42,042 bases of DNA, from sequence record NC_048112.1, one strand, 5' to 3'. Made by a program: the position numbers and the translations under genes. Shown one piece after another: positions 7,410-40,674 of this stretch (its first letter is position 1; every line of letters begins with the position of its first letter). Origin of the DNA: Escherichia phage Skarpretter. The notes under the pieces are model-generated. The model made no database searches. It saw only the letters and a list, made by a program, of their open reading frames with translations, and was not told the origin of the DNA.

Positions 7410-8414
7410 ATGAGTGATATTTACTGCCAGGTGTACCAGGCGGACGAGTTAACAAACGACGCCTATCACGAGGAAACGGATCACGTTTCCGGCTCCAGCC
7501 TGCATATGATGTTAAAAAACAGCATGGCGGGCTGGCGCTTCCAGAAGAAAAAAGACGAGGCCGAAAAAGCCAAAGAGAAGGAAAGCAACGGCGCGGCACA
7601 AAAGCCGCTGGCGTTCGGCACCACGGGCCATACGTGTATGCTTGAGCCGTCACGCTTTGAGGCTGAATTTTACCGGATGCCTGATCCTGCCGATTATCCA
7701 AAGGCTTTAACGTCCGTTGCTGCGGTCTGCTCATGGCTGAAAGAGAAAGGCGTAGGCGGTTACTCCGGTAAGAAAATGCCCGATCTTTATCCGCTCGTGG
7801 ATATGACCGGGGAAGATGTGATTATCTGGCAACGCCTTTGGGAGCAACACCAAAAGCTGGCGGGTGATCGTGAGCAAGTGCCAGCCAAAGACTACGATCG
7901 CGTCCTCATGATGCGTGAGGTGCTTTTAAACAACCACGATTACAGCCAGATCATTTATGACGGCGTGCCGGAGTTATCGATCTTCACTGAGATCGACGGC
8001 GTAAAAATCAAAGTGCGACTCGATCGCGTGACCAAAGACGCGGCATTAGTGGACTACAAAACCACGCAAAGCGCGGAGCCGGAGAAGTTCGGGCGGCTGG
8101 CGTTTGACAACGGCTACTGGTTAAAAATGGCGTTGCAACATGACGCTTTCGAAATCGCATACGGTCAAAAACCATCTTCCACCAACTTACTTGCCCAGGA
8201 AAAGGAGGAGCCTTATTTAGCGATGATGTACGCGCTAACCCCTGAGCAATTAATGGTGGGCCGGATGCAATATAAAACGGCGCTGCAAATGTATAAAGCG
8301 TGTCGTGATCTGGACGTTTGGCCCGGCTATGCTGGCGGCGTGGCGTCAATGAGTTTACCAACGCCCGGTTATATTCAGGCGCGTTACAAAGAATATTTTA
8401 AAGTTGAGGTTTGA
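7410..8414 (+). CDS. PD-(D/E)xK (RecB/YqaJ-like) recombination exonuclease
   Basis: 334 aa; LDRVTKD...VDYKTT nuclease motif; immediately upstream of erf and ssb. Confidence 0.65.
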   Translation: MSDIYCQVYQADELTNDAYHEETDHVSGSSLHMMLKNSMAGWRFQKKKDEAEKAKEKESNGAAQKPLAFGTTGHTCMLEPSRFEAEFYRMPDPADYPKALTSVAAVCSWLKEKGVGGYSGKKMPDLYPLVDMTGEDVIIWQRLWEQHQKLAGDREQVPAKDYDRVLMMREVLLNNHDYSQIIYDGVPELSIFTEIDGVKIKVRLDRVTKDAALVDYKTTQSAEPEKFGRLAFDNGYWLKMALQHDAFEIAYGQKPSSTNLLAQEKEEPYLAMMYALTPEQLMVGRMQYKTALQMYKACRDLDVWPGYAGGVASMSLPTPGYIQARYKEYFKVEV

Positions 8415-8416
8415 TC

Positions 8417-9097
8417 ATGGAAAACATTATTCATTTTTCGGAAACACGCGGCGCGTTTATGGCTGCATTCTTTGAAGCAAAAAAGAATATCGGCGTCATT
8501 GCAAAAAAGCGTGAAAATAAACACCTGAGTAGCAAATATGCAAACCTTACGGACTACCTGGACGCGATCGACTCCGCGATCGAGGATGCCGGGTTAATGG
8601 TTATCCAATCGCCGGGGAAATTCACGGCGGCGGGTGATCTGCCGATGGAAACGCGGATCGAGCATGTGGCAAGCGGTGAATTTATGGTTGCCCAAATGGA
8701 GATCCACGTAGACCGCAAAAACGCCCAGGGCGACGGCTCCGCGATCTCCTACGCTCGCCGCTACCATATCGGCGCATTGTTCGGCCTGTCTGCTGAGGAC
8801 GACGACGGCAACGGGGCCAAACGCAAGGCCAAAGACTACATGAAAGAGTTTGATCTGATCACCGATATCAAAGAGTTGAAAGACGAGGCACGCCGCGCCT
8901 TTATGGCTCTGCGGGGTAACGAGACGGAGCAAAACCTGATCCACACCTACGTGTCAAAACGTGAAGCTGATTTGACAATGAAGGGCGCAACCGGGTTTAA
9001 TCCGGCTCAACCGCGCAACGCTCGCCAGGCCCAAAAAGCGGAGCCAGCGCCAGCGCCAGCGGCGGAAGATAAACCAACACCCCCGGAGAAATTTTAA
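8417..9097 (+). CDS. erf: Erf-family single-strand annealing protein
   Basis: ISYARRY signature of the ERF family; likely ATG at 8417 with GAGGT SD; synteny exo-erf-ssb. Confidence 0.75.
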   Translation: MENIIHFSETRGAFMAAFFEAKKNIGVIAKKRENKHLSSKYANLTDYLDAIDSAIEDAGLMVIQSPGKFTAAGDLPMETRIEHVASGEFMVAQMEIHVDRKNAQGDGSAISYARRYHIGALFGLSAEDDDGNGAKRKAKDYMKEFDLITDIKELKDEARRAFMALRGNETEQNLIHTYVSKREADLTMKGATGFNPAQPRNARQAQKAEPAPAPAAEDKPTPPEKF

Positions 9098-10346: not shown

Positions 10347-10372
10347 GGGGCCATAGCGGCCCCTTTTTTTTT
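10347..10372 (+). terminator. rho-independent terminator, likely bidirectional
   Basis: GGGGCC-atagc-GGCCCC followed by T9; lies between convergent HTH gene and tailspike gene. Confidence 0.8.
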
Positions 10373-12620
10373 ATGCCGGAGTAATGAAGGTGATCGGCTT
10401 GGTCGCGGCTAACTGAGTGCCCGCCGCCGTCGCCGTAGCGATAGGGTGAGCAATGTTAATGCGTACCGGGGAGGACGGCACGCCCTGCGAGGTGTTGTAA
10501 GGCCCACGCGTGATCCACGTCTGCAACGCTGCACCGCCAGCGCCAGCGCCCGGAATGGTGATACGGGTTCCCGGCGTTAACGGCTTGCCATACATCCACG
10601 GCGCGGAGGACTTGTTACCATCCCAATCTACGTTGCAATCAACGTAAGTGTTTCCCACGGTGGTTGCCTTGATCTGGAAATCAGCCGTTGCCGGAATGTA
10701 CGCCCCGGACACGGTGACACGGAAAAATTTTCCGTCCGCACGCTGCACCAGATCCCCGCGCTGAAACTCGCGCCCGGTAGGGAATGCGTTGCTGTCAAAG
10801 TTCGGGTAGTTCATTTCGTCCGGCGTCGGCATGGTGTAAATCTGGTTTACGTTCCCCACCTTCACACCGATCGAGCCGTCGATCCCGTTATACTGGCGCA
10901 TATCCGCGTACACGTTGGAGCCGATCGACGTGATGTTTGTATAGCTGCACTGGCTCCAGCCCTGATCCGCAAAGCCGTTTTCGTCGTAGAAATTCACGTT
11001 AATCATACGCAATACGGACTTACCACGGATAAAGCGCCCGTTTGACGTGGTGCCGCCTGCGGAGTCGTTGCCGATACAATCAAAAACGGTGCCCGTAATG
11101 TTGGACATGTTCAGCATTGACGCCACGCCAAAGAGCGTTAACTTGTAACAGCGGATATTTTCAAGGGTGTACGTGTTCGGCGTCACCATGATCCCGTTAC
11201 TGTCGGCGTTTGCTGCCACACCACAATAAACGCGGCCCTGTTTGGTGCTTACGTTGCGTACAACCATATCAAAGCACGGGTTAGACGGTGCGCCAGCGGT
11301 TACGCCCCACTCCAGCATAACAATACGCACATCATGAGGATCGGCGGTGGTTACTACTGGCTCGCCGTATACGCCGTCAATGGTGATCCGTTTGCAGCCG
11401 TAGGCGATCACGGTGGACATGGTAAGCCCGGTGCCGTTCGAAACGTTCTGGTTTGGGTCGCCGTGGATGTTCTCGATCGTACTGTCGCGGGTCACTTCCA
11501 GGTGTAGGATCTGGCGCACGCGGTTTGCAAAGACGTTGCGGATCGCAAAGTTTTTGGCGTATTGGCTGTCTGGAATATCCCAGCCGTAAGGCCCGGCCCC
11601 GGCGATACCGATCCCGATACCCCAGTTTGAGTTGGCGATCGGGGTTTGCCCGTTCACGTTCTCCATGTAGATCCCGTCAATGACGCAACCGTAATCAAAG
11701 TTGGCGTTAACTACGTTAAACTCCAGGCAATCGCCGCCCACATTGTAGAATGAAAGGTTACGGAATACGCCGCGCTGTACGTCGCCGCTACCCTGCATTA
11801 AGAAGCCGAACAAAGTATTTCGAAACTCGGTGTCGGTCAGTTCGAAAGAGTCGTTTGTAGTCGGTGAAGCCTGCGCCACGATCGAGCCTGCTTTAGACGC
11901 GGTTACTTCGCCGTCGATCAGGCAATCCCTGATCCGGTTGTTGCCACCCCAAAGCATGATGCGCAATTTATTGATGATCGCACCTTCTAACAGGATGTTG
12001 GTGATCCGCCAGTCTGCGGTGCCCTGCCAGGTGCCACCCTGGATCGTGATGCCGTCCGCCGTTACGGTGCTTTCAAGTGTGCCCGTCCAGCCATACGCAT
12101 AAACGATCTTTTTGTTGGCTTTGGCGTAATCAAACATGGCTTGAATTGCCGCGCTCGTGGTCGTGTACTCGTCGCGGCTGGTGAAATCCCACGGCGTAAC
12201 GAAACCTTGCAGGCGGGTTTTTAACGTGCCCTCGGTGGTGCCAACGTATTCCCAGCCCGTAGGGGATTGGATCACCTGCCACATTTGCGCCGCGTCGTAC
12301 TCTAACAGGTTGTCAAAGTAGTATTGCAACACGTTCTGGCGGTTATATACCGCCATGCTGCACCCGGTTTGAGTGACAAAGCGGCCTACGCTGCCCTGAT
12401 AAACAGGATAACCGGAGGCATTGATCTTGATCGGCTGCGGGATCGGGGTGAGGGTTAGATCCTCATTCTCCCAATACACTTGCACCTGGTTTGCTGGATC
12501 AACCGGGTTAGTGTCGGGCTTGCCGATATAAATATCACCGTCCGCAATAGCCGCGAATTTATCCACCTGGATAAACGGCGAGGACGGCATACGCACGGCG
12601 GCGTAAACGGTATCAACCAT
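10371..12620 (-). CDS. tailspike protein with P22-type head-binding N-terminal domain and beta-helix receptor-binding domain
   Basis: 749 aa; N-terminal ~110 aa aligns by eye with P22 gp9 head-binding domain (IYIGKPDTNPVDPANQVQVYWENED...SMAVYN vs P22 [25 protein letters not shown]...SMAIYD); remainder Gly/Asn/Thr-rich. Confidence 0.85.
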   Translation of the reverse strand: MVDTVYAAVRMPSSPFIQVDKFAAIADGDIYIGKPDTNPVDPANQVQVYWENEDLTLTPIPQPIKINASGYPVYQGSVGRFVTQTGCSMAVYNRQNVLQYYFDNLLEYDAAQMWQVIQSPTGWEYVGTTEGTLKTRLQGFVTPWDFTSRDEYTTTSAAIQAMFDYAKANKKIVYAYGWTGTLESTVTADGITIQGGTWQGTADWRITNILLEGAIINKLRIMLWGGNNRIRDCLIDGEVTASKAGSIVAQASPTTNDSFELTDTEFRNTLFGFLMQGSGDVQRGVFRNLSFYNVGGDCLEFNVVNANFDYGCVIDGIYMENVNGQTPIANSNWGIGIGIAGAGPYGWDIPDSQYAKNFAIRNVFANRVRQILHLEVTRDSTIENIHGDPNQNVSNGTGLTMSTVIAYGCKRITIDGVYGEPVVTTADPHDVRIVMLEWGVTAGAPSNPCFDMVVRNVSTKQGRVYCGVAANADSNGIMVTPNTYTLENIRCYKLTLFGVASMLNMSNITGTVFDCIGNDSAGGTTSNGRFIRGKSVLRMINVNFYDENGFADQGWSQCSYTNITSIGSNVYADMRQYNGIDGSIGVKVGNVNQIYTMPTPDEMNYPNFDSNAFPTGREFQRGDLVQRADGKFFRVTVSGAYIPATADFQIKATTVGNTYVDCNVDWDGNKSSAPWMYGKPLTPGTRITIPGAGAGGAALQTWITRGPYNTSQGVPSSPVRINIAHPIATATAAGTQLAATKPITFITPA

Positions 12621-20394: not shown

Positions 20395-20703
20395 TTATTT
20401 GCCTTTCTTGGCTGCTGGTTTCTTGGTTTTGGCTGGGGCTTTCTCTGTGGCGTCAGACGGCGCTTTAACAGCCTGGTAATGGGATTGCACCAGCGGGGCC
20501 GCTTCGTGCGATTCTGGCGCGGCTGGCTTAACATCCTGCGGCCTTACGTCGCCCGGTTGGGGTACTTCGGACGGGTGGCGATACCACTCGCCGGATTTGA
20601 GGGCTTTTTCTACGTCCTCGTCGGCAAAAACAGCACTTTTTGCAAAGTATTTATGCCAGTAATGTTTATTCTTACCTTCACGGTAAAGCACGGTATTAGA
20701 CAT
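20395..20703 (-). CDS. hypothetical protein with Pro/Lys-rich C-terminal tail
   Basis: Likely ATG at 20703 with GAGGT SD; C-terminus KAPAKTKKPAAKKGK; sits between coat terminator and gp4-like gene. Confidence 0.45.
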   Translation of the reverse strand: MSNTVLYREGKNKHYWHKYFAKSAVFADEDVEKALKSGEWYRHPSEVPQPGDVRPQDVKPAAPESHEAAPLVQSHYQAVKAPSDATEKAPAKTKKPAAKKGK

Positions 20704-20718
20704 GGTAATAACCTCATA

Positions 20719-20741
20719 TAAAAAAAGGGGCCGTAGCCCCT
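20719..20741 (-). terminator. rho-independent terminator after coat gene
   Basis: Minus strand GGGGC-tacg-GCCCC followed by T7. Confidence 0.75.
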
Positions 20742-20776
20742 TTATACACGAAACAATCAGGTTAATCACCTATGCC

Positions 20777-22051
20777 TTACGGCGTCGGCGCAACCTGGTT
20801 TGCGATCTCGATGCCTACATATTCCGGCACCAGGACGGACACGCCATACAGTGTAGTAAAGCGGGCCGTGGTTTTCCCGGTGATGTGGTTGAACGCGTAG
20901 GACATGATCAGGGTTGCGCCCTGCTTAGTCGTCGCGGTCATAACCTGCGGGCCTTGTCCGGTTGGGAATGCGAGTTTCCCGTACATCACCTCTACGGAGC
21001 CGTCAGCCCACAAAATGTTGGTGTTAGCTGCCACGGTGTTGATAACGGTCAGCGCTGCGCCGGAGGCCGGGTTAGCGGTTACGTTAGCATACGGGCGGCT
21101 CGGCTCGTCGGCGTTGTCCAGCGGGAGGATCTTCGGCGCAATGGTAATGGTGTTGCCACTAACTGCCAGCACGCGGAAAACCTGCTCTTTGTCGGTCGTC
21201 GCTTTGCCGATCAGGTGTACCATATCCACACCCTCGATCGTGAATGCGTCGCCCTGCTGCAAGCCGTGGGAGGCGGAAACCGTGATCGTGCCGTAGCGGT
21301 TATCTACTGGCATGTTGCTTACCGCGTCCATTGCTTCGACTTTGTGAGCCGGAGCCGCCGCCAGGGTGATCGCCGCTGCGGAGCCAGTAGGCACGCGCCC
21401 GGTTTGATCCACTTTGTAGGAGTCGAACGACGCCACGTTAGGGATCTGCGCACGTTCCCACGCGGCCTGGTTGATGCCGGAGGAGTAAGAGCGGCCCGCC
21501 AGTTCACCCGCCAGATCTTTATAATCGTAGGCGTTGAAGAAAGCGCGTTTAGTGATGCCCATCGGCACGCCGATCATGGTGAAATCGGCGTCAAGCTCTG
21601 CCGCACCATCCCAAAGATCTTTGCCTTTGGTGCCAGTGGAGTTATCGCCAACGGCTTTAACGTTGGTTGCCCAGCGGGAAGCCTCTACAACGGTGTCATA
21701 GTCGATCTTCGCTGCGAGGCGCTGGCCTGCTGCGCGGCCTGCGTCGGTTTTGTGCTCCGGGTCGCGCATTTCGCGGGCGTCCAGGGTGTACAGGATGTTT
21801 TGCGGCTCTTTAAAAGTCGCTGGCACCTGGCGCTGGACAAGCTCGGTTTGCGCTGCGGAGGTCAGATCCAGACCTTCCACAATATCCATGTGGTAGTGCT
21901 GCGGACGCCATACGGTATCGCCTGCACGCTGCATGGCGGTGTCGTCAGGTCGGAATTTCTTTGCCTGGCGTGATACTACGCAAGCGGCCTCAAAGCCTTC
22001 TACGTAGTTCTCGAACATAATTTCGAGGTCTTTCGTTAACTGGTTAGCCAT
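20777..22051 (-). CDS. major capsid (coat) protein, P22 gp5-like
   Basis: 424 aa; ITVSASHGLQQGDAFTIEGV (P22 [20 protein letters not shown]), PYANV, NILWADGSVEVM (P22 NVFWADDAIRIV). Confidence 0.85.
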   Translation of the reverse strand: MANQLTKDLEIMFENYVEGFEAACVVSRQAKKFRPDDTAMQRAGDTVWRPQHYHMDIVEGLDLTSAAQTELVQRQVPATFKEPQNILYTLDAREMRDPEHKTDAGRAAGQRLAAKIDYDTVVEASRWATNVKAVGDNSTGTKGKDLWDGAAELDADFTMIGVPMGITKRAFFNAYDYKDLAGELAGRSYSSGINQAAWERAQIPNVASFDSYKVDQTGRVPTGSAAAITLAAAPAHKVEAMDAVSNMPVDNRYGTITVSASHGLQQGDAFTIEGVDMVHLIGKATTDKEQVFRVLAVSGNTITIAPKILPLDNADEPSRPYANVTANPASGAALTVINTVAANTNILWADGSVEVMYGKLAFPTGQGPQVMTATTKQGATLIMSYAFNHITGKTTARFTTLYGVSVLVPEYVGIEIANQVAPTP

Positions 22052-23188: not shown

Positions 23189-23635
23189 TTATCTGTGGAA
23201 TATCCCAACGAATTTACCCAGGCGGACGATCTCCGGGGTTATCATTCCGGCGTTGGTTACAGCATCATGCGCGGCGTTGTTCATGCGGGTAAAGTAGCGG
23301 ATCATTTCGCGGGCTACTCTCTCCGGGTCGGTGCCCCAATCCTCCGGCACGCACGTTTTAACCTCGATCAAGCTGTCGGGATCATTCACGTCGCCCGGCC
23401 CCTCGATCACGTCCACGATCAGCGCCGTGTAAACGGTATCGGCTGGAGGGGTTGGCGCGTGCGCTGGTGATGCCCAGCCGCCCGTGCTGCTGGCGTCGTA
23501 TTTCCGGCGTGCTTCCATCCACTCGCTTACGGCTTTGTCGCTCGGCGGTAAACGAAACTCTTTTCCCATATCGCGGGGTAGTTGGTAGGTGCGCCCGTTA
23601 AGAGCGCCCCCGATCATTACGTAACGATATAACAT
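23189..23635 (-). CDS. hypothetical protein
   Basis: 148 aa, ATG at 23635 with GAGGA SD; second gene of promoter/terminator-bounded unit. Confidence 0.55.
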   Translation of the reverse strand: MLYRYVMIGGALNGRTYQLPRDMGKEFRLPPSDKAVSEWMEARRKYDASSTGGWASPAHAPTPPADTVYTALIVDVIEGPGDVNDPDSLIEVKTCVPEDWGTDPERVAREMIRYFTRMNNAAHDAVTNAGMITPEIVRLGKFVGIFHR

Positions 23636-23644
23636 GGCGTTTCC

Positions 23645-24100
23645 TCAAAATGGAATATCAAGATCAGGATCTTTCTTTGGTGCTGGCTCCACGATCTCCG
23701 CGTCCTCGGCGTCGATCTCCTGCTGTGGCTTGTCGTCTGCCGGGATGATCTCACTCTCAACCGGGCCTTTGTAGGCGATAGCCTTAAACCGGGCGATCTT
23801 GCCCTGCAACTGCGTTTCTGTCCGGTACGCGGCGGCACGGTGGCGGCTTAACTCGGTTTCGTACTTCTCGATCATATCCTTCGCTACGCTGTCGATCGGC
23901 GCTGGCTCGTATTCGATCTCAACGTCTTTAACGGCGAGTAGTGCCCAGGTGCCAAACATGCGGAGGCTGTCGGCGTTGCCGTTTGGGCCGTAGCTCTCGT
24001 GCTGCGGGTTGGTGAAAACTTCTACTTTGCCCTCGGTGCCCTGGTAGGTTCCGGCGTCAACGCACTGGCAAATGTAAAGGCGGGTCGTGATAGTCTGCAT
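23645..24100 (-). CDS. hypothetical protein with SSB-like C-terminal tip (..KKDPDLDIPF)
   Basis: ~151 aa from ATG at 24100 (GAGGAG SD); acidic disordered C-terminus ending DLDIPF, as in SSB. Confidence 0.6.
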   Translation of the reverse strand: MQTITTRLYICQCVDAGTYQGTEGKVEVFTNPQHESYGPNGNADSLRMFGTWALLAVKDVEIEYEPAPIDSVAKDMIEKYETELSRHRAAAYRTETQLQGKIARFKAIAYKGPVESEIIPADDKPQQEIDAEDAEIVEPAPKKDPDLDIPF

Positions 24101-24146
24101 GTTCTGATCTCCTCGGTTGGGTTCACGTTGTCGTGAATGTGAGGAG

Positions 24147-24191
24147 ACTATAGCCCCATCCGTGGGGCTTGTCTTTAGCAAAAAGTGCTAT
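24147..24191 (-). promoter_or_regulatory. conserved promoter element driving the 24100 unit
   Basis: Minus strand ATAGCACttttTGCTAAA, 23 nt, TATAGT, ctcCTCACAttcac. Confidence 0.6.
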
Positions 24192-26428: not shown

Positions 26429-26478
26429 TCTCGGCGCTCCCCTTGTTGATTCTGGCAAAGTCTAACATGATGCGAAAA

Positions 26479-26522
26479 ATAGCACGAATTGCTAAAGCAT
26501 TTCACGTTAAAGTGATTATAGT
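26479..26522 (+). promoter_or_regulatory. conserved promoter element driving the 3-gene cassette
   Basis: ATAGCACgaatTGCTAAA, 22 nt, TATAGT, aatCTCACAttcac, ~35 nt before ATG at 26557. Confidence 0.6.
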
Positions 26523-26556
26523 AATCTCACATTCACGAACAAATGAGGGCTTTAAA

Positions 26557-26763
26557 ATGTTAACTTTCGTAATCGTTGTTGCGGCGCTGTCCTGGATCGT
26601 CTGCTCATGGCTCGTTGGCGCGGCTGCTGGGCGGTACTTCGCCAGCCCGGTTTGCGCGTGGGTCTACCTGGGCGTTTCGCTGGTGCTGTCGCCGCTGGTG
26701 GGCCTGCTGGTGCTGTTTGGCTCTCACCTGCTGGACTACATCGAATCGCGGGGCCGCGCATGA
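26557..26763 (+). CDS. small membrane protein (two predicted TM helices)
   Basis: 68 aa, two hydrophobic helices; GAGGG SD; ATGA overlap with next ORF. Confidence 0.55.
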   Translation: MLTFVIVVAALSWIVCSWLVGAAAGRYFASPVCAWVYLGVSLVLSPLVGLLVLFGSHLLDYIESRGRA

Positions 26764-26933
26764 AACGTAAAGAGCGGTTAAGCCTGCTGGCAGTGCGCAA
26801 CCTCGCGGCGGGCTGTCCGCCGTCAAAGATCCCCGGCCCTGCGTCGCGCATGGACTGCGAGGAAATTATAACGGAGTTGGCCCAGCGTTACGTGCGGCTC
26901 CTGGATAAAGTCAACGCTATGAAATACAGGTGA
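26760..26933 (+). CDS. small hypothetical protein
   Basis: 57 aa, translationally coupled (ATGA); shares ELAQR motif with following ORF. Confidence 0.45.
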   Translation: MKRKERLSLLAVRNLAAGCPPSKIPGPASRMDCEEIITELAQRYVRLLDKVNAMKYR

Positions 26934-26937
26934 TAAG

Positions 26938-27123
26938 ATGGACGAAATAACGATAAGCATTATCGATCAGCTTGCGGACGGCGTGCCGTTTTACGATCTC
27001 CTCTCCGGGTACGATAGCGAATCGCTGATCCAGGAGTTGGCCCAACGCTTACGCGATGCCAACGACGAGATCGAAAGCCTGGGTTATGAGGTGATGGAAT
27101 TACAAGATCCGGGGAGTTCATGA
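26938..27123 (+). CDS. small acidic hypothetical protein
   Basis: 61 aa, AGGTGATAAG SD, followed by terminator. Confidence 0.5.
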   Translation: MDEITISIIDQLADGVPFYDLLSGYDSESLIQELAQRLRDANDEIESLGYEVMELQDPGSS

Positions 27124-27124
27124 A

Positions 27125-27152
27125 AACAGGGGCCATTGCGGCCCCTTTTGCG
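27125..27152 (+). terminator. rho-independent terminator (bidirectional position)
   Basis: GGGGCC-attgc-GGCCCC followed by TTTTG; between convergent cassette and terL 3' end. Confidence 0.7.
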
Positions 27153-32117: not shown

Positions 32118-32204
32118 GTTAATTATTCTCCTGCTTATTATATCGAAAGCTGGCAGACGTAAAGCCAGCTATACACTTTAGCGTCATGCTGTACATGATC
32201 GCCG

Positions 32205-32238
32205 TACATAACAATAAACCGGGCATCAAAACCCGGTT
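32205..32238 (-). terminator. rho-independent terminator
   Basis: Minus strand AACCGGG-8 nt loop-CCCGGTT followed by TTATTGTTATG. Confidence 0.5.
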
Positions 32239-32314
32239 AGGCAAAAAGTGCTATATGTTCATCAGCAACGCGATCCACAAAAACCAAAGAAGCATTAACG
32301 TTGATCCGTCCATC

Positions 32315-32482
32315 TTAAAAGCTCCTCGTGACCAGCCACGATCCCAGCCACGACAACAAAAACGACGCCAGCGCCAGGAATGGGATCACCGTCCATTCAT
32401 TCAGCCCATACGCCGCAACCAATCCGCCAGCCACCAGGGCAACGGCAATCACTCCGGCAATAACGCAAGATTCAACACCCAT
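32315..32482 (-). CDS. small membrane protein
   Basis: ~55 aa from ATG at 32482 (AGGAGG SD); hydrophobic. Confidence 0.45.
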   Translation of the reverse strand: MGVESCVIAGVIAVALVAGGLVAAYGLNEWTVIPFLALASFLLSWLGSWLVTRSF

Positions 32483-32588
32483 CGTAAAACCTCCTGTAAC
32501 GCGCTCTAAGCGCCTCAAACGAAAAAGGCAGGCAATCACCTTACCCGCCCCCAAATTCCCGCGCATACGTGAGGACACGCGGCGACGT

Positions 32589-32774
32589 TTACGCCTCGCT
32601 CCTGTCCGTTTGCTTTTGCGCTGCTTTTCGGAAGATGTGCGACGAAATGACGCCGCCTATCACATCCACGCTTATTGCCAGCGCTGCGGCGCTCCACCAG
32701 TCGAACGAGTAGCGGATCAGTGCTGCCAGTACGACAAAGCGGATAAGCCAGTAAGGCCAAAACCGTTTGATCAT
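32589..32774 (-). CDS. small membrane protein
   Basis: ~61 aa from ATG at 32774; one TM helix, basic C-terminus. Confidence 0.45.
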   Translation of the reverse strand: MIKRFWPYWLIRFVVLAALIRYSFDWWSAAALAISVDVIGGVISSHIFRKAAQKQTDRSEA

Positions 32775-32877
32775 CGTTTCCCCCTTTTGCGTTCTGAGTC
32801 GATCAGGGCTTTGGCAAATAGCGTTAAACCAATGCCAGCCACCAGCCCCAACACGAACATAACAAACAAGCCTGCGA

Positions 32878-33093
32878 TCATAAGATACCCTCCAGATTAA
32901 GCGCCACCAGTGCGCCCCATATACCCAGCGTTGCGCCACCTCCGACAACGCACCAGACGATCATTAAGCAATTCCACAACCCGTACTTTTCGATCCAGTA
33001 GTCGCGCCACTCGGTGAAACGGTTTGTTTTCTTCTCCGGCGTTGGTGGTGTGCCACGATGATCCGGGAAATTGCCTGCGATAACGTTACTCAT
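32878..33093 (-). CDS. small membrane protein
   Basis: 71 aa, GAGGAG SD, C-terminal hydrophobic helix. Confidence 0.5.
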   Translation of the reverse strand: MSNVIAGNFPDHRGTPPTPEKKTNRFTEWRDYWIEKYGLWNCLMIVWCVVGGGATLGIWGALVALNLEGIL

Positions 33094-33401
33094 ACTTTAT
33101 TCACTCCTCAATGAATGTACAACATCGCACAAAAGTTGTTTTGTCTTTTCGTGCTGTCGGCCTTTACCGCTTCCGGCAATCGCTAACATCGCCAACGCAC
33201 AATAAGCCCGCAAGGGCGTTTGGGTGCGGTGGTGTGCGTAGCGAGTGGCGAGCGTAGCGAGTTAACACGATAGTGTTTTATATATATAAGGGCGCACTCT
33301 TGTTGTTGTGCATATTAAACCCTTGATTTATATAGCCTTTTCACCACTCCCGCACAATAATAAGTTTTGTGCGGGTTATGTTATTGAAATACAAAGAAAA
33401 A

Positions 33402-38822: not shown

Positions 38823-39282
38823 AGTCACACCACAACGCAAGGCGTTTTTGGACGCGATCGCCGTGGGCGAGGGCACCGATAATGGACGCCAGCAAACCGC
38901 CAATCATGGCTATGACGTGATTGTAGGCGGTAGCCTGTTTACTGACTACAGCGATCACCCGCGTAAGCTGGTGGTGCTCAATCCCAAACTGAAAAGCACG
39001 GCGGCGGGCCGCTATCAGCTTTTGAGCCGCTATTACGATTCGTATAAAAAATCCCTGGGCCTGCCGGACTTCTCGCCGGAAAGCCAGGATCAGATCGCCC
39101 TCCAGCAAATCGCGGAGCGCGGGGCGCTGGCGGACGTGGACGCGGGCCGGATCAAAGACGCCGTGAAGAAATGCCGCACTATTTGGGCCTCCATGCCGGG
39201 ATCGCCATACGGGCAACGCACGGAGACTATGGCGGACTTTCTGGAATACTTCACCGCTGCGGGCGGTAAGGTAGCCGCGTAA
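38809..39282 (+). CDS. R: endolysin, lambda R-like lytic transglycosylase
   Basis: 157 aa, near-colinear with lambda R: QRKAFLD, EGTDNGRQ, NHGYDVIVGG, LFTDYSDHPRKLV, LNPKLKST, AGRYQLLSR. Confidence 0.9.
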   Translation: MAKREVTPQRKAFLDAIAVGEGTDNGRQQTANHGYDVIVGGSLFTDYSDHPRKLVVLNPKLKSTAAGRYQLLSRYYDSYKKSLGLPDFSPESQDQIALQQIAERGALADVDAGRIKDAVKKCRTIWASMPGSPYGQRTETMADFLEYFTAAGGKVAA

Positions 39283-39833
39283 TGTGGGGCGCGATCCTGG
39301 CCCTCCTGCGCCGATACTGGAAGCCGATCGCCGTAATCCTCCTCGTGCTGCTGGCGCTGGGGGGATCTTACCTTAAAGGCTCGGCTGATAAGGATCAGGA
39401 ATGGCAAGCGCGATGGACACAACGCGATCTGGACGATTCCACCCAGAAAGGGATCGATAATGTAGCCGCCCGGATAATTGAACAAGGCCGGGCCATTGAA
39501 CGCCAGGAGGCGATCGAGGATGCACAAAAACGGGAAGCCGCCGCGCTGGCTGCTGCTGATCGGTTGCGTGGTACTGTTGACGGCCTGCAACAACTCGCCA
39601 ACAAATACGCGGCCCAACTGGACGCCCAGCGGGCAACCACTGATCTTGCCGCTGCCGTCGCAAGCAAAACAAAAGCCCAGGGGGCCGGAGTGCTCGCCGT
39701 CATGCTCGGAAGCGTTGCAAAGGAAGCTGAATATTATGCTAAACGATCTGACGAAAGCTACGACGCCGGGCTAACCTGCGAGCGGCTTTACGAGTCGGTG
39801 AGGGTGACGCAAGAAAAAGTCAAGGGGCCATAA
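39282..39833 (+). CDS. Rz: i-spanin (Rz-like)
   Basis: 183 aa; N-terminal TM helix, periplasmic coiled-coil; TAATG coupling with R. Confidence 0.7.
   Translation: MWGAILALLRRYWKPIAVILLVLLALGGSYLKGSADKDQEWQARWTQRDLDDSTQKGIDNVAARIIEQGRAIERQEAIEDAQKREAAALAAADRLRGTVDGLQQLANKYAAQLDAQRATTDLAAAVASKTKAQGAGVLAVMLGSVAKEAEYYAKRSDESYDAGLTCERLYESVRVTQEKVKGP
39520..39774 (+). CDS. Rz1: o-spanin (Rz1-like) lipoprotein embedded in +1 frame of Rz
   Basis: ~84 aa from internal ATG; signal peptide with lipobox (LIGC / LTAC), Pro-rich mature region. Confidence 0.55.
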   Translation: MHKNGKPPRWLLLIGCVVLLTACNNSPTNTRPNWTPSGQPLILPLPSQAKQKPRGPECSPSCSEALQRKLNIMLNDLTKATTPG

Positions 39834-39848
39834 CGGCCCCTTTTTTTA
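39822..39848 (+). terminator. rho-independent terminator (bidirectional position)
   Basis: GGGGCC-ataac-GGCCCC followed by T7; between Rz and convergent Ig-like gene. Confidence 0.8.
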
Positions 39849-40583
39849 TGCTGCTGGGTTGACGGTTAACACGCAATTGGTGCTTTGCGCCGTCTTGTTG
39901 TTGGCGTCTTTGACGATAACATAATACGTGCCAGCATCACCCGCAACGGCTGCGGCCTTGCTGTACGTTGCGGAGGTTGCGCCGGAGATCGCGGCCCCGT
40001 CTTTGTACCACTGATAAGTGCGGGCGGGTTTGCTGGTGGTTGCTGCCGCTGCCACGATCGAGATCGCCGCCCCGGTGTCAACTGCCAGCGTTGCGGGCGG
40101 CTGCGTGCTAAAGCTCGGCAAGCGGTAGGAGGTGACGGGCATCACGTTAGACGTGATCGCGGTTCCTTCTGCGTCCGTTACCACGCATGACCAGTTATAG
40201 GTGCCGTTGCTTGGGAAAACATCATCAACGTTGCTTGGGCCAAATGTCGGTGAGTTCGATCCCACGTTGGACGCGCTGCGCTTCCACTGGTAAGTGTAAG
40301 GGGCAACGCCGCCAGTAACGGCAACCGTGAGCGGGCCGAATGTTTCCCCGTTGCTTAGGTACACGTCGGCGTGACTTGTGGCAATGTTGGTGGTAAACGC
40401 CAGCGGCTTAACCAGGCGCGGATCAAGCTCAATATAAAACATCCCGGTAGGGTCGAGATCTGCCGGGTCGGTATCAAGCCAGATAATATCTTTTTGCGGG
40501 GTGTGCCCGCTCGCTGGATCTTCGATGCGGGTTACTTTCCACCCTAACAGATCCTTGCGGTAGTATCGGTGCCAAAAGCCCAT
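39846..40583 (-). CDS. protein with two predicted Ig-like domains
   Basis: 245 aa; two repeats with Ig-like signature (YTYQWKRS...GTYNWSCVVTD and YQWYKDGAAISGATSATY...GTYYVIVKD...CVLTV); AAGAGG SD. Confidence 0.6.
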   Translation of the reverse strand: MGFWHRYYRKDLLGWKVTRIEDPASGHTPQKDIIWLDTDPADLDPTGMFYIELDPRLVKPLAFTTNIATSHADVYLSNGETFGPLTVAVTGGVAPYTYQWKRSASNVGSNSPTFGPSNVDDVFPSNGTYNWSCVVTDAEGTAITSNVMPVTSYRLPSFSTQPPATLAVDTGAAISIVAAAATTSKPARTYQWYKDGAAISGATSATYSKAAAVAGDAGTYYVIVKDANNKTAQSTNCVLTVNPAA

Positions 40584-40635
40584 GATTTTTGCCTCTTTGT
40601 TGATTGCAATCGGGAGGATGATAAACCAACACCCC

Positions 40636-40664
40636 GTTAAACGAAAGGAGCCGCGTTTTGCGGC
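40636..40664 (-). terminator. rho-independent terminator
   Basis: Minus strand GCCGC-aaaac-GCGGC followed by TCCTTTCGTTT. Confidence 0.5.
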
Positions 40665-40674
40665 CCCTTCTCGG

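Follow-up and report, generated by a model that had tools for sequence, protein, structure and literature searches.

An immunoglobulin-domain protein with a clade-specific N-terminal domain next to the lysis genes of Escherichia phage Skarpretter: a candidate virion decoration

Introduction

Proteins carrying immunoglobulin (Ig)-like domains are an ordinary kind of phage protein, and Ig-like decoration proteins of phages are well known. In Escherichia phage Skarpretter, a gene of this kind lies beside the lysis cassette, and the question raised by the locus is whether its product belongs to the virion or acts elsewhere. Skarpretter (MK105855) is a podovirus of the genus Skarprettervirus; its clade has been described as one of lytic podoviruses, and its nucleotide similarity to phage C130_2 is only ~38% (PMC7552041). 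The window analyzed here is the whole genome (42,042 bp, GC content of 55.8%). A preliminary description of this window, made from the letters alone, had placed at the locus a protein with two Ig-like repeats, had likened its position to that of the bor moron of phage lambda, and had proposed that it is either a Hoc-like virion decoration or adhesin, or a host-interaction factor.

The gene and its surroundings

The 245-aa open reading frame (ORF) of the preliminary description is a real gene, as judged from its sequence. It starts with ATG according to the ORF table, and this codon is preceded by a Shine-Dalgarno sequence (Table 1), with an equivalent GAGG aligned 5' of the same ATG in all four genera of the locus alignment (Skarpretter-, Sortsne-, Murray-, and Hungariovirus). 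In addition, 93 homologues have been found in the protein database at E<=1e-10, the best of them 90% identical (E 9e-143) and encoded on a 41.8-kb contig. As had been described, the gene converges on an Rz-like i-spanin gene, which is located downstream of those for holin and endolysin, and both genes share a bidirectional terminator whose hairpin is scored on either strand. Embedded out of frame within the Rz gene, an ORF at 39478-39774 (+) carries a lipoprotein signal and the lipobox LLTAC (…LLLIGCVVLLTAC/NNSP…), and is likely to encode an o-spanin of the Rz1 type within the gene of the i-spanin.

Table 1. Features at the Ig-gene locus and parts of the encoded protein, with positions in the window.
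Feature	Position	Strand	Basis
Ig-domain decoration-type protein, complete CDS, 245 aa + stop	39846..40583	-	ORF table, homologues, phrog_2973
Shine-Dalgarno AAAGAGG, 8 nt 5' of Ig-gene ATG	40592-40598	-	read from sequence
Rz-like i-spanin gene, converging with Ig gene	39282..39833	+	phrog_312, 3e-48
Bidirectional terminator common to Ig gene and Rz gene	39822-39842	both	terminator scan
Intrinsic-terminator-like hairpin between D5-like regulator gene and Ig gene	40639..40667	-	RNA fold z = -2.84
N-terminal domain, residues 1-57, predicted four-stranded beta, clade-specific, putative virion (capsid) anchor	40413..40583	-	
Linker, residues 58-67 (VKPLAFTTNI), overlapping first strand of Ig domain 1	40383..40412	-	alignment
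Ig-like domain 1, about residues 60-155, PYTYQWKR motif	40119..40412	-	Pfam, AF2, Foldseek
Ig-like domain 2, residues 156-245, I-set/Ig_3 type, RTYQWYKDG motif	39849..40118	-	Pfam Ig_3, pb10 identity

A second hairpin, resembling an intrinsic terminator, stands on the other side, leaving the Ig gene with terminator-like hairpins at both ends. It is composed of GGGGCCGC-AAAAC-GCGGCTCC followed by a TTTCGTTT tail, and in the alignment of the four genera it does not vary, although their genomes are otherwise very divergent. In fact, its 3' arm and tail, GCGGCTCCTTTCGTTT, have been found exactly in 10 related loci, 56-79 nt 5' of the conserved start codon, and with one mismatch in an eleventh, L007 (loci compared: L001-L003, L007, and L009-L015). 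A sigma-70 scan of positions 40584-40674, which take in the space between this hairpin and the start of the Ig gene, found no sigma-70-like promoter. When k-mers of the leader were compared with the rest of the genome in the search for a promoter, a single 16-nt repeat was recovered and nothing else: GGGGTGTTGGTTTATC occurs exactly at 40616-40631 (-) in the leader and at 9068-9083 (-), at the end of the gene 8411..9097, where ~0.002 such matches would be expected by chance.

A homologue occupies the same place in phages KMB41 (Murrayvirus), Sortsne (Sortsnevirus), and C130_2 (Hungariovirus), and in the four genera the Ig gene closes a leftward operon that otherwise contains replication, methylase, and small-regulator genes and converges on the holin-endolysin-spanin cassette. 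In a divergent lineage (P0070; L006), the order is the tailspike gene, the Ig gene immediately after it and in the same orientation, a 73-aa paralogue of the N-terminal domain, and the converging lysis cassette. A search of 5,426 complete E. coli genomes gave no match to the Ig gene.

The virion module of Skarpretter is P22-like, comprising portal, scaffold, phrog_283 coat, Ad3 adaptor, Hc3, tail needle, three ejection proteins, and a colanic-acid-degrading tailspike, and holds no tape measure or tail tube gene. The coat gene is located at 20777..22051 (-). Three ORFs of the head module (20395-20769, 23189-23635, and 23645-24181, all -) have no PHROG match; further minor head proteins or decorations might be encoded there. 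No lambdoid character is seen in the replication and lysis modules, and the ORFs scanned yielded neither an integrase nor a repressor. Two stretches lack a gene-strand ORF >100 aa. The first (26459-27152; 694 bp) separates terL from the portal gene and has a bidirectional terminator at 27128-27146, and the second (32118-33401; 1.28 kb) lies upstream of a 523-aa primase/helicase-like gene.

Architecture of the protein

The protein is made up of three parts, namely a 57-aa N-terminal beta domain, the 'PLAFTTNI' linker, and two Ig-like sandwiches. In Pfam, residues 156-224 match Ig_3 (E 1.3e-8) and residues 83-147 give SprB/PKD-type matches, while residues 1-80 have no match. An AF2 model built with 38 full-length homologues (mean pLDDT of 93.6, pTM of 0.77) predicts one beta-sandwich at about residues 60-155 and another at about 156-243. 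Using Foldseek against the PDB, ~200 columns have been aligned to tandem I-set Ig pairs such as those of Robo, titin, Sidekick, and Dscam (E ~1e-8 to 1e-9), and the capsid decoration protein of phage N4 was also matched. The two Ig-like domains proposed from the letters are therefore confirmed by domain, model, and fold comparison. With regard to their type, for which Big_2 and I-set had been named, the Ig fold and an I-set/Ig_3 assignment hold; Big_2 is ruled out, since Pfam gives Ig_3, I-set, and PKD-type matches instead. On the other hand, the similarity between both domains is weak (35% identity over 34 aa), so that they are two Ig domains rather than close repeats. The C-terminus ends directly after the second domain (NPAA and stop). 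At the other end, the N-terminus (MGFWHRYYRKDLLGWKVTRIEDPASG) is hydrophilic and aromatic, without a signal peptide, as had been remarked before; within MGFWHRYYRKDLLGWKV there is no hydrophobic segment, Cys, or lipobox.

Relationship to known decoration proteins

The first match among PHROG families is that to PHROG 2973, 'Hoc-like head decoration' (E 4e-46), in which residues 13-245 are aligned with profile positions 59-286 of 310; phrog_3995, 'tail protein', comes next (6e-34). In RefSeq, relatives of the gene already carry the label 'Hoc-like head decoration'. Among solved structures, the closest by sequence are Hex-Dec of phage Bas63 (9ncf_S, 8e-33), gp20 of Sf14 (9c2d_S, 9e-29), and pb10 of T5 (5lxk_A, 4e-13), all three of them matched through the Ig domains only and placed on capsids by cryo-EM (PMC12609058; PMC11821841). 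The second Ig domain is 44% identical to that of pb10 over 80 aa (E 8e-17). The first one matches the C-terminal Ig domain of Sf11 gp24 (9occ_A), an entry named 'neck whiskers protein gp24' that corresponds to the tail-tube protein of Sf11, the match being to its C-terminal part.

The likeness to these capsid proteins extends to their domain order, because pb10, Sf14 gp20, and Hex-Dec all present an N-terminal anchor followed by a linker and C-terminal Ig domains. With T5 pb10 (5LXK, 8ZVI), the Skarpretter protein shares an anchor of ~60-75 aa and a Pro-rich linker 'PPL-x-(F/L)-(T/S)-x-(D/N)-L', represented in pb10 by APPLTLSKDL at the place of the Skarpretter linker; neither protein has a signal peptide. 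Nevertheless, the N-terminal domains are unrelated, that of pb10 being largely helical as read by eye from its sequence and that of Skarpretter predicted as all-beta; pb10 also has one Ig domain where the Skarpretter protein has two, and its gene belongs to the head gene cluster instead of adjoining the lysis cassette. Hex-Dec (9NCF chain S) and Sf14 gp20 (9C2D chain S), the best matches among solved structures, differ in having a capsid-binding domain larger than 57 aa, since their first Ig match begins at about chain residue 115-124, and they decorate T=9 capsids of myophages (Felixounavirus/Mooglevirus), whereas Skarpretter is a P22-like podophage. The capsid-binding domain of Bas63 Hex-Dec has in addition a two-lobed pseudo-C2 fold, and among the Hex-Dec proteins of Felixounavirus the anchor is conserved while the number of Ig domains varies (PMC12609058). 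Another relative to be considered is T4 Hoc, which lends its name to the PHROG family and shares with the Skarpretter protein the tandem Ig-like domains on a phage and a presumed adherence to glycans or surfaces. However, the capsid-binding domain of Hoc is C-terminal (PMC11821841), as opposed to the N-terminal non-Ig domain found here, and the Hoc crystal structure 3SHS is absent among the 39 PDB matches obtained at E<=10.

The N-terminal domain

What sets the protein apart most is its N-terminal domain, overlooked in the preliminary description. Across the full-length homologues, residues 1-57 show good conservation, with W4, R19, I20, P23, L36, L43, D44, and Y50 nearly invariant, and they are predicted to form an all-beta domain of four strands (residues 2-9, 14-20, 33-36, and 49-53 in the AF2 model). 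A profile of the domain retrieved nine proteins from 1.84 billion cluster representatives, and in 9/9 the domain is N-terminal; seven of these proteins run on into Ig domains, and the other two have 72-73 aa and match only its first ~40 residues. In IMG/VR the domain is present at seven loci, all of them on contigs of 41.5-42.7 kb. A scan of 185,579 bacterial species-representative genomes, which was pattern-seeded with a single-protein query and detects close relatives only, matched the Ig part alone, and no N-terminal domain appeared among the best 80 loci listed. Furthermore, the domain matches no known fold or family. Residues 1-57 have no sequence match in 9ncf_S and 9c2d_S, where all phmmer alignments start at query residue 131 at least, and a profile-profile comparison with T5 pb10 aligned the linker alone (VKPLAFTTNI vs APPLTLSKDL; hhalign probability of 0.7%). 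The profile searches and the comparison with pb10 therefore indicate a clade-specific module that is not the capsid-binding domain of pb10, Hex-Dec, or Hoc, and the anchor type of Skarpretter appears to be confined to podophages of ~41 kb only.

In a sister lineage, a 73-aa protein (1202-1423 in L005, equivalent to 5876-6097 in L006) matches the first ~40 residues of the anchor (hmmsearch E 3e-10), and it is encoded right after a protein with three Ig domains. This standalone paralogue may be a competitor or a filler for the same binding sites.

Exchange of Ig cassettes at the linker

Identity to the Skarpretter protein is uncoupled among its domains. For example, P0044 is 87% identical in the N-terminal domain and only 34 and 43% in Ig domains 1 and 2, while P0006 shows the reverse pattern (32, 76, and 73%, respectively). 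Among the homologues, the Ig domains are two or three in number and vary in sequence while the anchor is kept. Outside the clade, the nearest Ig cassettes (74-81% identical) have been found in proteins of 243 to 322 aa encoded by N4-like podophages of ~75 kb. These Cbunavirus proteins, e.g., gp47/gp48 of Kosakonia phage Kc283, carry the Ig1-Ig2 cassette at the same LAFTT(N/D)L junction, their 'Hoc-like head decoration' label likewise placing them on the capsid by annotation. In Kc283 the Hoc-like genes come right after those of lysozyme R and Rz, and the phage has a colanidase-type tailspike that is 41% identical to that of Skarpretter in the catalytic part; in contrast, the N-terminal domain is entirely different (MSKSLIGNGVV...), as are the phage family and capsid type. 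Two adjacent Hoc-like paralogues with one anchor type lie side by side in this phage (L096 3062-4546), one of 150 aa with a single Ig domain and the other of 321 aa with three; the cassette of the latter is 74% identical to the Skarpretter protein. A third N-terminal type is that of Cronosvirus GAP227, where the gene follows terL; no solved structure was found for this domain when it was sought as a link to HRP29. The GC content did not decide the direction of transfer of the cassette between Skarpretter-like and Kc283-like phages.

On sequence grounds, the linker is the junction at which N-terminal domains and Ig cassettes are swapped between phage lineages. The anchor type tracks the lineage and the cassettes move, which is what would be expected if the N-terminal domain fits one virion lattice and the Ig domains point outward. 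With respect to the tailspike of Skarpretter (10371-12620, -), it is of the colanic-acid-degrading type (phrog_6117, 4e-207) and gives a weak match to that of GAP227. Colanidase-type tailspikes are present in all three podophage lineages that have this Ig family, a correlation of only three cases which hints that the Ig cassette may be matched to capsule-bearing hosts.

Possible roles of the protein

The best supported explanation is that the protein is a non-essential, pb10/Hoc-like decoration or adhesin of the virion surface, probably on the capsid, and we give it a probability of about 0.6. The PHROG match, the capsid-located relatives, the pb10-like order of domains, an anchor that is kept while the Ig domains vary, the distribution of anchor types by lineage, the P22-like virion, and the lack of a signal peptide all point to this function, as does the position of the gene right after that of the tailspike in the divergent lineage. 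Hence, of the two roles first suggested, that of decoration or Hoc-like adhesin is the one favored, with a location on the virion that we infer from these relationships. Synthesis would take place in the cytoplasm, because there is no signal peptide, and the 57-residue domain would then dock on the P22-like particle after its assembly, with the coat-protein capsomers as the most probable site, since a short tail without a tube leaves little other surface. From there, the linker and both Ig domains would project outward and might establish weak multivalent contacts with surface glycans (exopolysaccharide/colanic acid of the host, LPS, or mucus) that keep virions close to susceptible cells. The general role attributed here to phage Ig domains follows Fraser et al. 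(2006) and the Peru-2 preprint. For Skarpretter-, Sortsne-, Murray-, and Hungariovirus phages, the literature found consists of genome descriptions, with no proteomics or cryo-EM. What counts against a decoration is that the gene lies outside the structural operon, ending that of replication, methylase, and regulator genes behind a conserved terminator; with this position and no sigma-70 promoter detected, late expression is not evident. Moreover, we know of no Ig-type hexamer decoration described on a P22-type coat lattice.

An alternative location would be the tail or neck, where the protein could work as an accessory fibre ('whisker'), its N-terminal domain sitting on the portal-vertex complex or the tailspike and its Ig domains aiding adsorption there. 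Some homologues are in fact labelled 'neck whiskers protein' or 'tail protein', and such a fibre would agree with the phrog_3995 match, with the likeness between Ig domain 1 and the Ig domain at the C-terminus of the Sf11 tail-tube protein, and with the gene order after the tailspike in L006. Against it, similarity in the Ig domains is the only source of the labels, the solved relatives with the best scores belong to capsids, and a P22-type tail (Ad3, Hc3, needle, and tailspike) has no tube and, to our knowledge, no docking site for a protein of this kind, so that we regard this location as unlikely. As for the name 'major tail subunit' given in GenBank to the homologues of IME_EC2, ST231, and EspYZU05, annotation labels are all that speaks for it. 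It was apparently inherited via Ig-domain similarity, as a note in the GAP227 record indicates, and is ruled out by the gene content of a genome with a P22-like short tail and neither tape measure nor tail tube; a 57-residue N-terminal domain is, in addition, too small for a tail-tube fold. The chance that the name is right is practically negligible.

A further alternative would be a non-structural, moron-like accessory factor, expressed from its own small transcription unit, whose target would be either the host or cell material that has been released. The Ig gene does stand between two terminator-like hairpins, outside the structural operon, and adjoins the lysis cassette as bor does. Bor, however, is a lipoprotein expressed from the prophage. 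The Skarpretter protein has neither signal peptide nor lipobox and therefore cannot reach the envelope as Bor does, no promoter was detected, and the homologues are structural proteins. In contrast to a sporadic gene, it is found at the same locus in phages of four genera; this conservation, together with the absence of matches in complete E. coli genomes and of the N-terminal domain among the best 80 loci listed from the bacterial species genomes, therefore makes it a core gene of the clade and not a moron. This clade has been described as lytic (PMC7552041), in keeping with the lack of integrase and repressor among the ORFs scanned. What the gene has in common with lambda bor is thus its place on the map, adjoining the lysis cassette on the Rz side, and the terminators that flank it. 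The part of the analogy that concerned a moron is not supported, and neither is, on the same evidence, the suggestion of a host-interaction factor; we consider a role of this type quite improbable.

Returning to a decoration of the capsid, a more elaborate model can be put forward only tentatively, and we doubt it more than we believe it. According to this model, the N-terminal domain would be a new module for anchoring to the capsid, specific for coat lattices of the P22 type, and a 'socket' for Ig cassettes that are swapped at PLAFTT(N/D)L between P22-like, N4-like, and T7-like podophages with colanidase-type tailspikes; the cassette would be an adhesion module matched to host glycans and co-selected with the depolymerase, and the 73-aa paralogue would be the competitor or filler of that socket. 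If true, an Ig decoration of the Hoc/pb10 style would be described here for the first time on a P22-like T=7 capsid.

Significance

Many phages carry Ig-like decoration proteins, which are already in use as display platforms. What distinguishes the protein of Skarpretter is its uncharacterised anchor domain, the non-structural map position of its gene behind a conserved terminator, and the exchange of cassettes with N4-like phages. The analysis corrects the labels inherited by its homologues ('major tail subunit', 'neck whiskers', and 'tail protein'), and shows the analogy with bor to be positional only. It also identifies a small, clade-restricted anchor domain without known fold relatives, and provides a clear case of exchange of Ig cassettes at a fixed linker between unrelated podophage families. 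Finally, if the anchor proves to bind P22-type capsids, capsid display on P22-like particles would gain a new and compact tag.
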